NCBI GenBank assembly: GCA_965205065.1
Contig: CBDBFT010000001.1
Coordinates: 5,102,569-5,166,568, forward strand
Origin: Candidatus Poribacteria bacterium
GTDB lineage: Bacteria > Poribacteria > WGA-4E > WGA-3G
Direction: 5' to 3'
Length of the DNA stretch: 64,000 nucleotides
In this document: in pieces, positions 56,100 through 59,010 of the stretch
Layout of the letters: the number at the start of each line of letters is the position of its first letter
How positions within the stretch are numbered: position 1 is the first letter of the stretch
The notes under the pieces: model-generated
Databases searched by the model: none
The model's input: the letters and a program-made list of their open reading frames with translations, nothing else
Told to the model about the DNA's origin: nothing
Position numbers and translations under genes: made by a program

Positions 56100-56364
56100 C
56101 AGGACTTACGCATTTTTATGAAATGGTAAAGATAAAACTTGAAATATCTTTGAAAATCTTGTATAATATCCGTTGTATATAGAACTTATAGTGAGTAAAA
56201 GTTTACAATCCAATCTGAATCAGTATTTGAAGTATAAAGAATGCGACATAAAGTACTTCCTCTGATTGTATTCTTTGCCACATTCCTATGTTTTACTCAA
56301 TATGACTTCATAGAAAAAACGGCTTAATATTTTTATATCAACTCAGTTTTAGAAGGAGAATATC

Positions 56365-56682
56365 ATGGATTTCAAGGACGGATACCCATTGACATGTTTC
56401 GTGCACAGTGAGTCTTTTGATGAAACTTACACAGCCTACATCCAAAAGAACGGCACAGGTTTTTTGGGACATATTCCTGACTTCCCAAAAGTGGAATGTC
56501 CGGGAGAGACCATTGAGTCTGTCAAAGTTCAGCTGCACGATGCTCTTGACCAAGCCCTAAATGAGATTGAAGATGCTTGGGAAAAACAGTTTGAAGCAGA
56601 TGTCAAAGCGGGACGACTTGAACCGCTCGTGAAAGAAGCTAAGGAAAGTTACAAGGCGGGGAAATATACCCGGATTGTTTGA
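56365..56682 (+). CDS. HicB-like fold antitoxin (partner of RelE/ParE toxin)
   Basis: YTAYIQKNGTGFLGHIPDFPKVECPGETIESVKVQLHDAL matches the HicB_lk_antitox pattern. Its stop overlaps the toxin start (ATGA). Confidence 0.5.
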   Translation: MDFKDGYPLTCFVHSESFDETYTAYIQKNGTGFLGHIPDFPKVECPGETIESVKVQLHDALDQALNEIEDAWEKQFEADVKAGRLEPLVKEAKESYKAGKYTRIV

Positions 56683-56954
56683 AGTTCATGCAAAAGTTTC
56701 AACACATCATCAATGACGAATTTGCAGCACTCGCTGACAAACTGCCACCCGATATTCAAAGAGCTATTACCAAGCAATTTCAATTTCTACGTACAAATCC
56801 ACTTCACCCCTCACTCAGATTCAAAAAAGTGTCAGGACGATGGTCGCTACGTATCACTAAGGATTACCGAGCACTCGGTTATGAACAGGATGATGATACG
56901 ATTACATGGTATTGGGTCGGGACACATGATGAATATGAAAAGAAAATCAAGTAG
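56679..56954 (+). CDS. RelE/ParE-family type II toxin
   Basis: TNPLHPSLRFKKVSGRWSLRITKDYRALGYEQDDDTITWYWVGTHDEYEK, the typical RelE/ParE C-terminal pattern. Confidence 0.6.
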   Translation: MKFMQKFQHIINDEFAALADKLPPDIQRAITKQFQFLRTNPLHPSLRFKKVSGRWSLRITKDYRALGYEQDDDTITWYWVGTHDEYEKKIK

Positions 56955-56997
56955 GAGAAATACTTAAGTCTGTCCGACATCAAATAGGGAATAAGGA

Positions 56998-57071
56998 TGG
57001 GCTTACCTGGAATCGAACCAGGGACCTCGCGCTTATCAGGCGCGCGCTCTAACCTTCTGAGCTATAAGCCC
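56998..57071 (-). tRNA. tRNA-Ile (anticodon GAT), CCA not encoded
   Basis: Hand fold: acceptor GGGCUUA/UAAGCCC, anticodon loop CUGAUAA, T-loop UUCGAUU. It lies 111 bp downstream of the 16S 3' end. Confidence 0.85.
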
Positions 57072-57182
57072 CTGTTGAAGGGAAAAATAAGCATGTAATT
57101 TGAAAGCTAAATAGTTAGTCGTAAATGCCTTGTAAGAATACGAGCATTTGAACAAGGAGATTGTGTGAGAATACCCTTGTTA

Positions 57183-58745
57183 GTGCTCCTTAGAAAGGAG
57201 GTGATCCAGCCGCAGGTTCCCCTACGGCTACCTTGTTACGACTTCGCCCCGGTCATCGGTCTCATTTTAAACAGCTCCCTCCCTAAGGTTAGGTCACCGT
57301 CTTCGAATGCTACCAACTCCCATGGCGTGACGGGCGGTGTGTACAAGGGCCGGGAACGGATTCACCGCGGCATGCTGATCCGCGATTACTAGCGATTCCA
57401 ACTTCATGCAGTCGAGTTTCAGACTGCAATCCGAACATGGGGCCGGCTTTTTGGGATTTGCTCCACCTCGCGGTTTGGCTTCCCTCTGTACCGACCATTG
57501 TAGCACGTGTGCAGCCCAGGGCATAAGGGCCATGCGGACTTGACGTCGTCCCCACCTTCCTCTGGCTCGTCACCAGCGGTCTCTTTAGAGTCCCCAGCAT
57601 TACCTGATGGCAACTAAAGACAGGGGTTGCGCTCGTTGCGGGACTTAACCCAACATCTCACGACACGAGCTGACGACAGCCATGCAGCACCTGTCATAAT
57701 GTCCCGAAGGAAAATCATATTTCTATGACGGTCACTAAGATGTCAAGCCCTGGATAAGGTTCTTCGCGTTGCGTCGAATTGAGCGACATGCTCCACCGCT
57801 TGTGCGGCCCCCCGTCAATTACCTTGAGTTTTAACCTTGCGGCCGTACTCCCCAGGCGGGGTACTTAATGCGTTAGCTACAGCACAGAGGGAATCAATAC
57901 CCCCTACACTTAGTACCCATCGTTTACAGTAAGGACTAGCGGGGTATCTAATCCCGGTTGCTCCCCAAACTTTCGCGCATGAGCGTCAGTCTTAGACCAG
58001 AAAGCCGCCTTCGCCACGGGTGTTCTATACGATATCTGAGCATTTCACCGCTACACCGTACATTCCACTTTCCTCTTCTAGACTCAAGTGATGCAGTATC
58101 AAACGCAGTGGTTCGGTTGAGCCGAACCCTTTCACGTCTGACTGACACCACCGCCTGCGCGCGCTTTACGCCCAGTGATTCCGGACAACGCTTGCCCCCT
58201 ACGTCTTACCGCAGCTGCTGGCACGTAGTTAGCCGGGGCTTTCTACTACGGTAACGTCAAAACCGCTGAGTTATCACCAACGGCCAATTCATCCCGTAAC
58301 ACAGAGGTTTACGACCCGAAGGCCTTCATCCCTCACGCGGCGTCGCATCGTCAGGGTTTCCCCCATTGCGAAATATTCTCGACTGCAGCCTCCCGTAGGA
58401 GTTTGGGCAGTGTCTCAGTCCCAATGTGGCTGACCATCCTCTCAGACCAGCTACCCATCGTAGCCTTGGTGCGCCTTTACCACACCAACAAGCTAATAGG
58501 ACGCGGGCTCATCTCCGAGCGGCAGCCGAAGCCACCTTTCATTAAATTCACCGAAGTAAACTCAATCGTATTTGGTATTAGCAACCCTTTCGAGTTGTTG
58601 TCCCCATCTCAGAGGTAAATTACCCACGCGTTACTCACCCGTTCGCCACTTTCCGCCGTACCGAAGTACGGTTTCTCGTTCGGCTTGCATGCCTTATCCA
58701 CGCCGCCAGCGTTCGTCCTGAGCCGGTATCATACTCTCCACAAAA
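57183..58745 (-). rRNA. rrs: 16S ribosomal RNA
   Basis: Reverse complement carries the 3' end GGAUCACCUCCUUUCU and the 1492R, 1100, 907, 785 and 515 (GTGCCAGCAGCTGCGGTAA) conserved blocks. The 5' end is UGGAGAGUAUGAUACCGGCUCAG. Confidence 0.95.
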
Positions 58746-58865
58746 GTATTGAAGTACAACTTCAAATAATTGAAGCATACTCACAAGCTATAAAATAGGC
58801 ACGTCACGTTCACTATTTAACTTTCAAAGAACAACTTCACCTTCCAAATCTGAAAGGTAAATAGT

Positions 58866-58894
58866 ATTATACAATTTTAAAAAGTGTTTGTCAA
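58866..58894 (-). promoter_or_regulatory. rRNA promoter TTGACA-17-TATAAT (minus strand)
   Basis: Plus-strand attata at 58866-58871 and tgtcaa at 58889-58894. About 113 nt upstream of the mature 16S 5' end. Confidence 0.45.
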
Positions 58895-59010
58895 ATAAAA
58901 ATGTGAAAAAATACGATAATTTGTCAACTTTTAAGCATTTATATAAAAATTGCAGATTCTTTTAACGCTGTTTCTCTTCGTCTGTCCAATACTTATAACG
59001 TTTATATTAT

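Follow-up and report, generated by a model that had tools for sequence, protein, structure and literature searches.

A 16S rRNA–tRNA-Ile unit apart from 23S rRNA in a Poribacteria genome, and its place among related loci with split ribosomal RNA operons

Where is the rest of the rRNA operon when a complete 16S rRNA gene (rrs) is followed by a single tRNA gene and then by unrelated genes, and is such a 16S gene a working unit, a remnant, or an error of assembly? The question is raised by a locus in a 64-kb stretch of contig CBDBFT010000001.1 (assembly GCA_965205065.1, Candidatus Poribacteria bacterium), here called the window, in which rrs and tRNA-Ile(GAT) lie next to a putative toxin–antitoxin pair. 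Our conclusion is that the locus is very probably the single, functional 16S unit of a Poribacteria chromosome whose rRNA operon has been cut between its spacer tRNAs into two independent units. The evidence comes from the gene content and conserved signals of the unit itself, and from a survey of 94 related loci in which canonical, partly separated, and fully separated arrangements are found.

Gene content of the 16S unit

The genes of the unit and its 3′ boundary are the following.
57194-58744, minus strand: complete 16S rRNA gene, rrs (Rfam RF00177, 1547 bits, model positions 1-1533)
56998-57071, minus strand: tRNA-Ile(GAT), terminal gene of the unit, 122 nt 3′ of the 16S gene (ARAGORN; RF00005, 74.1 bits)
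56955-56997, minus strand: 43-nt trailer after tRNA-Ile, at the ancestral Ile/Ala junction (alignment of 3′ flanks)

The initial annotation, which was made from the sequence, had described an rrs gene trailed by tRNA-Ile(GAT) without tRNA-Ala, with no 23S or 5S gene within 57 kb downstream, and searches with covariance models and tRNA detection agree with it on each point. Besides the 16S gene, the only RNA genes that Rfam detected in the window were tRNA-Ile and tRNA-Sec. Large-subunit and 5S rRNA models gave zero matches across the 64 kb, of which 57 kb are on the downstream side and 5 kb on the upstream side; a search of the same 64 kb for 23S motifs was negative, and ARAGORN found no tRNA-Ala in it. 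A permissive Rfam search of positions 55900-59300 added only a sub-threshold match to a plastid untranslated region, antisense to the tRNA; we dismissed this match. With matches as strong as those to the 16S and tRNA-Ile genes, chance is not an issue. Brewer et al. define unlinked rRNA genes operationally by a 16S–23S distance over 1500 bp (10.1101/705046), and the window, with a complete 16S gene and no 23S gene within 1500 bp downstream, falls under that definition.

Comparison with relatives points to an intact 16S gene. Its Rfam score lies inside the range of the relatives (1523-1556 bits), it has zero private substitutions at columns that are invariant among 65 other Poribacteria 16S genes, and in its closest relatives tRNA-Ile likewise follows the 16S gene by ~120 nt.

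Promoter, leader, and putative processing helix

Signals expected of an expressed rRNA gene surround rrs.
58866-58894, minus strand: sigma-70-type rrs promoter, TTGACA-17-TATAAT, preceded by an A/T-rich stretch (12/12 consensus match)
58836-58861, minus strand: leader hairpin at the boxB position, ACCTTTCA…TGGAAGGT (predicted 11-pair stem; alignment)
58822-58834, minus strand: boxA-like antitermination motif, TTGTTCTTTGAAA (sequence and alignment)
58813-58825, minus strand: 5′ strand of the leader–trailer helix, GAAAGTTAAATAG, immediately after boxA (folding, RNAalifold)
57102-57114, minus strand: 3′ strand of the leader–trailer helix, CTATTTAGCTTTC, ~80 nt past the 16S 3′ end, just 5′ of tRNA-Ile (folding, RNAalifold)

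The promoter, which had been called plausible from its hexamers and spacing, is stronger than that description: it matches the consensus at all 12 positions, and an upstream alignment shows both hexamers and their spacing kept in ~65 related species. It is followed by the hairpin and then by boxA, in that order, upstream of the 16S gene. The arms of the boxB-like hairpin co-vary between clades in the same alignment (ACCTTTC/GGAAGGT, GCCTCC/GGAGGG, and GCTTCC/GGAAGC), and the TCTTTGA core of the boxA-like motif is invariant in every aligned Poribacteria leader. This motif resembles the bacterial rrn boxA consensus. The leader and trailer of the window fold together at −95.6 kcal/mol (z = −6.9), and the helix that they form around the 16S gene has 13 pairs, 4 of which show compensatory double changes among 36 species. 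Promoter, boxB-like hairpin, boxA, and leader–trailer helix are kept throughout the phylum. By analogy with characterized rrn leaders, the hairpin and boxA may load a Nus antitermination complex, and the helix could be an RNase III-type processing stem of the 16S rRNA.

Lineage of the 16S gene

One genome per GTDB species was scanned with a 29-nt signature taken from the window 16S gene. The scan returned 94 loci (designated here by L numbers), almost all of them from records titled Candidatus or uncultured Poribacteria; many lie on contigs of chromosome scale. The window gene is 85.9-97.8% identical to full or partial Poribacteria 16S genes; the best full-length match, at 97.8%, is L008 (OZ242325.1), and the more distant Poribacteria clades are 88-90% identical. 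In a neighbor-joining 16S tree the window is nested within the Poribacteria. Signature scan, identities, and tree thus answer the classification check that had been proposed for the gene: it belongs to Candidatus Poribacteria. Two 18-mers that we take to be Poribacteria-specific PCR primers match the 16S gene exactly. Relatives assembled at megabase scale have one 16S locus each in the signature scan, and Poribacteria genomes are 4-7 Mb in size and rich in insertion sequence (IS) elements.

The operon is split in one clade of Poribacteria

All 94 loci were oriented on the 16S gene, and the sequence downstream of it was annotated with ARAGORN, 23S motifs, and Rfam. A canonical order, 16S–tRNA-Ile followed after 8-9 nt by tRNA-Ala–23S, was found at 26 of the 94 loci, all of them outside the clade of the window. 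Five loci inside that clade have tRNA-Ala–23S displaced by 0.4-4 kb from tRNA-Ile, as confirmed by Rfam. Another 48 loci have 16S–tRNA-Ile and no tRNA-Ala or 23S within the available flanking sequence, which extends at least 5 kb past tRNA-Ile in 15 of the 48; 32 of these 48 related loci lie on contigs longer than 1 Mb, so that the claim of the initial annotation that an unlinked rrs is typical of sponge-associated candidate phyla holds for this one. Overall, none of the 53 informative loci of the window’s clade has an adjacent tRNA-Ala (53/53), and 37 of the 53 are on contigs of more than 1 Mb, mostly titled “chromosome.” The non-canonical states all fall into one monophyletic clade of the neighbor-joining 16S tree, which includes the window, and the other clades are canonical with the exception of L004.

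Within the split clade, an alignment of 3′ flanks shows that similarity between species ends at the last base of tRNA-Ile, right after GCCCA. The 16S gene, spacer, and tRNA-Ile of the window are colinear with those of relatives through this final tRNA base. We place the break exactly at the Ile/Ala junction because flank similarity stops at the 3′ end of tRNA-Ile, and the canonical clades continue into tRNA-Ala. Genes inserted in or adjacent to this junction in relatives encode WD40-repeat, ABC-transporter, and secreted proteins.

Several loci depart from these patterns. The exception noted above, L004 (JAGFCA010000084.1), has a 16S gene of the canonical clade (89.9% identical to that of the window) together with a tRNA-Ile variant and downstream sequence that match the split-clade loci L070 and L032; the probable cause is a short-read chimera with its join inside the rRNA gene. 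In some members of the split clade the trailing tRNA, too, is separated from the 16S gene: no tRNA-Ile was found within 5.6 kb downstream of the 16S gene of L082 or within 1.5 kb downstream of that of L025. L023 (OZ219753.1) has a complete 16S gene at 339-1890 and, 1.2 kb later on the same strand, a partial second copy at 3074-3722 that corresponds to model positions 874-1520, with no tRNA-Ile within 4.3 kb.

The spacer between 16S and tRNA-Ile is also occupied in some species. In a sub-clade whose 16S genes are ~95% identical to that of the window, it holds a gene on the rRNA strand for a protein of ~250 aa with a signal-peptide-like N terminus and no Pfam match. The gene is present in L001 (about 283-1035 nt after the 16S gene), L083, L086, L063, L035, L064, L011, L021, L002, L037, L010, L058, L024, and L065. 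The secreted rRNA-spacer proteins of L001, L090, and L046 have similar C termini (…LAATWGAIK…, …LATTWANVK…, and …LPVTWGELKK), and this shared motif may be a lineage-specific sorting signal.

A probable second transcription unit in relatives

The other half of the operon can be seen in relatives in which it is displaced from the first. In L076, L016, L071, and L053 a TTGACA-17-TATACT promoter lies directly 5′ of tRNA-Ala, and a second boxA (GTTCTTTGACAA) lies between tRNA-Ala and the 23S gene. Two independent transcription units, promoter–boxA–16S–tRNA-Ile and promoter–tRNA-Ala–boxA–23S–5S, are the best-supported reading of these arrangements. A scan of metagenomes with the clade-specific 23S leader returned three short contigs with tRNA-Ala–23S and no upstream 16S gene, which are uninformative on the distance between the units. 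Metagenome contig L096 has a gene for a 793-aa protein and then tRNA-Ala–23S, with no 16S gene in 3.3 kb upstream. L053, the basal member of the split clade, has between tRNA-Ile and 23S three tandem units of 136 nt (5290-5600, minus strand), each of which carries TTGACA-17-TATACT; a tRNA-like sequence (Rfam, 48.5 bits) comes after each of the first two, and the true tRNA-Ala after the third.

On the explanation that we favor, an ancestral operon 16S–tRNA-Ile–tRNA-Ala–23S–5S would have been cut between its two spacer tRNAs in the clade of the window. In the first of the resulting units, a strong sigma-70 promoter would drive a leader with a boxB-like hairpin and boxA, the leader–trailer helix would bracket the 16S rRNA, and tRNA-Ile(GAT), coming last, would be freed by normal tRNA processing. 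The second unit, promoter–tRNA-Ala–boxA–23S–5S, would occupy another genomic site, separated on the downstream side by 57 kb or more. Immediately 3′ of tRNA-Ile there would be a rearrangement-prone boundary, which in the window abuts a convergent ParE-like pair. Gene content, lineage, and the conservation of the split and of promoter, boxA, and helix are direct observations; we infer the existence of a 23S unit in the source genome, as we do antitermination, processing, and the mode in which transcription stops.

The 3′ boundary and its putative toxin–antitoxin neighbor

Two genes on the opposite strand meet the end of the unit.
56679-56954, plus strand: convergent ParE-like toxin gene, a neighbor outside the rRNA unit (Pfam PF24732 ParE_like, 28.6 bits against a cut-off of 24.4)
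56365-56682, plus strand: putative antitoxin gene with a 4-nt overlap with the toxin start (UPF0150-like, HicB-type fold, 18.9 bits against a cut-off of 27.3)

The toxin gene ends 43 nt from tRNA-Ile, as the initial annotation had it, and its assignment to the RelE/ParE type is sustained by the above-threshold ParE_like match. A HicB-like antitoxin is plausible at most, the family match of the overlapping upstream open reading frame being sub-threshold; the 4-nt overlap of the pair fits an operon. Neither protein had a match in NCBIfam or, by sequence, in the Protein Data Bank.

A scan of the minus strand found no intrinsic terminator in the 1-7 kb downstream of tRNA-Ile, again in line with what had been noted before. 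The tract that follows tRNA-Ile in relatives is G-poor and C/T-rich. In 50 split-clade loci its first 40 nt average 32% C and 5.6% G. Across the first 100 nt, C is the more frequent of the two in 49 of these loci, and the ratio comes back to ~1 beyond that; the tracts themselves are unrelated in sequence between loci. In the window, where the tract is only 43 nt long, the bias is weaker (C 20%, G 15%). Such a G-poor, C/T-rich composition is typical of Rho-loading sites, and by that analogy the tract could be a factor-dependent stop, through Rho loading, or a processing signal.

No two species are alike in what follows tRNA-Ile, not even those with near-identical 16S genes: tRNA-Ala lies at +1.7 kb in L016, and L043 has no tRNA-Ala in 5 kb. 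This variation fits a rearrangement hot spot 3′ of tRNA-Ile.

Two further readings concern what this boundary might do. The first, which we consider improbable though the least so of the alternatives, is that the rRNA operon is coming apart stepwise, an internal promoter at the Ile/Ala junction having come first and the junction then having become a landing zone for genes that are transcribed from, or against, an antitermination-proficient promoter. The basal member L053, with its three tandem promoter copies, would preserve the internal-promoter stage, and the 16S–tRNA-Ile spacer would be a landing zone as well in some species. Were this true, a ParE-like toxin–antitoxin pair would be subject to rRNA-driven antisense transcription in the window, and a secreted 250-aa protein would be expressed from within the rRNA transcript in a dozen relatives.

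The second, to which we give slightly less weight, is that a boxA-modified polymerase reads past tRNA-Ile and that rRNA transcription, running antisense to the toxin–antitoxin module, holds it back in step with growth rate. The boxA leader, the end of the toxin gene so close to the tRNA, and the lack of an intrinsic terminator on the minus strand in that 1-7 kb are all consistent with it. However, the neighbor of tRNA-Ile is different in every relative, and the coupling is therefore not conserved; moreover, 49 of 50 relatives have the G-poor, C/T-rich tract, an indication that transcription as a rule ends at that point. Polymerase may read through into the toxin–antitoxin genes, but such read-through is unproven and not conserved, and an antisense brake of this kind is a conjecture.

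Flanking genes and insertion sequences

Upstream of the unit are a protease gene and two nested mobile elements.
59081-59818, plus strand: CPBP/Rce1-like intramembrane protease gene, divergent from rrs (Pfam PF02517)
59900-62825, minus strand: IS4-family insertion sequence, transposase gene 59916-61232 (NF033592, 212.9 bits against a cut-off of 115)
61288-62746, minus strand: IS701-like element nested in the IS4 element, transposase gene 61303-62721 (Pfam DDE_5, 147 bits)

A CPBP protease gene and a nested IS had both been proposed here; PF02517 identifies the first, and the second resolves into an IS701-like element inside an IS4 element. The CPBP gene is a conserved upstream neighbor, found at the same position in L008 and L074 with 87-88% protein identity. 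The IS4 element ends in perfect 21/21-nt inverted repeats (59900-59920 and 62805-62825), which are overlapped by a 19-nt direct repeat (59885-59903 and 62822-62840), a possible target-site duplication. The IS701-like element has terminal inverted repeats at 61288-61332 and 62698-62742, and L057 has, downstream of its 16S gene, a copy that is 71% identical and shares these ends. A 51-nt tandem duplication of the CPBP 3′ end (59739-59789 and 59792-59842, 96% identical) closely precedes the IS4 element on its left; L008 and L074 have this segment once. When the window flanks were compared with the 94 loci at nucleotide and protein level, the CPBP gene (L008 and L074) and the IS copy (L057) were the only shared sequences; the downstream flank had nothing in common with any of the 94.

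That downstream flank contains ordinary chromosomal genes, lepA, lepB, selB–tRNA-Sec, dapB, and lipA, together with others of interest for the lineage.
53323-54123: PhyH-domain protein, a dioxygenase (Pfam)
19614-21521 and 48763-49893: two TPR-repeat proteins
42720-44657, minus strand: selB gene (SelB winged-helix and beta-barrel domains)
42536-42625 (Rfam), also delimited as 42532-42625, minus strand: tRNA-Sec, anticodon TCA

PhyH-domain proteins and eukaryote-like repeat proteins are hallmarks of Poribacteria (Kamke et al. 2014, PMC3909097), and both are represented near the 16S unit by the PhyH protein and the TPR-repeat proteins. The tRNA-Sec gene lies directly downstream of selB; the two together mean that selenocysteine-incorporation machinery is encoded in the genome.

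Assembly artefact, decaying copy, or genomic island

Some points weigh against a functional split unit as we read it. The 23S unit of the source genome was not seen in the 64-kb window. No terminator was found downstream of tRNA-Ile to mark the 3′ end of the transcript. The junction in the window is supported by conservation in relatives rather than by sequencing reads. Finally, the downstream neighbors differ even from those of the closest relatives: L051 and L062, with 98-99% identity across the last 500 nt of the 16S gene, diverge after tRNA-Ile, and synteny therefore cannot confirm the junction.

The last two points bear on whether the contig was mis-joined near the rRNA gene, the true neighbor of tRNA-Ile being tRNA-Ala–23S. 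Ribosomal RNA regions are classic break and chimera points in metagenome assemblies, the related short-read contig L004 looks chimeric, and the downstream flank of the window is without counterpart in any relative. Nevertheless, with all 53 informative loci of the clade lacking an adjacent tRNA-Ala, the clade has no linked sequence from which the window could have been mis-separated. Colinearity with relatives runs from the 16S gene through the spacer to the final base of tRNA-Ile, the CPBP gene upstream has its counterpart in L008 and L074, and G+C content is uniform, about 0.40-0.45, on either side. Since the trait is clade-wide and occurs on many chromosome-size contigs, a mis-join in the window is very unlikely.

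A still smaller chance attaches to the 16S gene being an orphan or decaying extra copy, with the working rRNA supplied by a separate, linked operon. In some Planctomycetes a linked and an unlinked operon do coexist (Frigoriglobus, PMC7534041), and L023 is an example of a partial 16S duplicate within the Poribacteria. The single 16S locus of each megabase-scale relative and the zero private substitutions argue against it, however, as do the Rfam score, which is that of an ordinary relative, and the intact consensus promoter, boxA, and covarying helix.

Equally remote, and rejected, is a genomic island targeted to the 3′ end of tRNA-Ile with tRNA-Ala–23S just past it: tRNA 3′ ends are common integration sites, the toxin–antitoxin pair directly adjoins the tRNA, and L016, L076, L071, and L090 have 1.7-4 kb of foreign genes between tRNA-Ile and tRNA-Ala–23S, but no repeat of the tRNA-Ile 3′ end was found in the window with up to 3 mismatches allowed, no integrase was seen among the open reading frames scanned, the 57 kb downstream hold the core genes listed above, and G+C does not shift.

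Comparison with known systems

Unlinked rRNA genes are not the rarity outside a few lineages that the initial annotation took them for, a view now outdated: in the survey by Brewer et al. they occur in 52% of phyla and in as many as 41% of soil taxa, are strongly conserved along phylogenetic lines, and are prominent in Planctomycetes (10.1101/705046). The locus is like the cases in that survey in its 16S–23S distance, in the conservation of the trait within a clade, and in belonging to a slow-growing or symbiotic lineage; it differs in that Poribacteria are unmentioned there, and in that breakpoint, two promoters, and intermediates are resolved here to the nucleotide level. Full-text literature searches, which did not extend to key early Poribacteria papers, found no paper stating that the Poribacteria 16S gene is unlinked.

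The first Poribacteria genome fragment, fosmid 64K2, described by Fieseler and colleagues in 2006, reportedly carries an unlinked 16S gene and two stable-RNA genes. If so, it shares with the window the candidate phylum, the sponge-symbiont source, and a 16S gene without adjacent 23S and 5S genes, whereas the window comes from a different species (best public 16S match, 97.8%) and has different flanking genes. We regard the window as one more genome with an already known lineage trait, real but ordinary; the within-phylum series and the exact Ile/Ala breakpoint add some detail and leave that category unchanged.

The practical value of the locus is modest, and the window itself implies nothing beyond the known lineage trait. 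The clade, a large and abundant group of sponge symbionts, is unrecoverable by 16S–internal transcribed spacer–23S long-amplicon or operon-based profiling, and its 16S and 23S genes are not pairable by adjacency during binning. A series within one phylum, from canonical operon through internal promoter and inserts of 0.4-4 kb to full separation, could be used to study operon break-up and 16S:23S stoichiometry under two promoters.

Like the rrn operon of the Escherichia coli type, the unit of the window retains the promoter, boxA, the helix flanking the 16S gene, and the order 16S–tRNA-Ile. Unlike it, the unit ends after tRNA-Ile, with no 23S or 5S gene downstream and no recognizable intrinsic terminator.

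In Planctomycetes, unlinked rrn genes have been known since 1989, from Pirellula marina (Liesack & Stackebrandt). Members of the Gemmataceae have one linked and one unlinked operon, the linked operon of Frigoriglobus being without spacer tRNAs (PMC7534041). The likeness to Poribacteria lies in a 16S gene many kilobases from the 23S–5S pair and in large genomes, free-living or host-associated. The phylum is a different one, the Gemmataceae keep a linked copy whereas the Poribacteria relatives have a single rrs, and, in place of the linked Frigoriglobus operon without spacer tRNAs, each half of the Poribacteria operon has one.

Split rRNA operons are also present in Borrelia, Helicobacter, and Thermus. 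In Wolbachia and the Rickettsiales, the 16S gene lies apart from 23S–5S. These symbiont and pathogen operons resemble those of the Poribacteria in having two units, with 23S and 5S together and a promoter needed for each. They differ in being usually tied to genome reduction, in contrast to the 4-7 Mb, IS-rich genomes of Poribacteria, and in their spacer tRNAs, which are not partitioned as they are here, with Ile beside 16S and Ala beside 23S.

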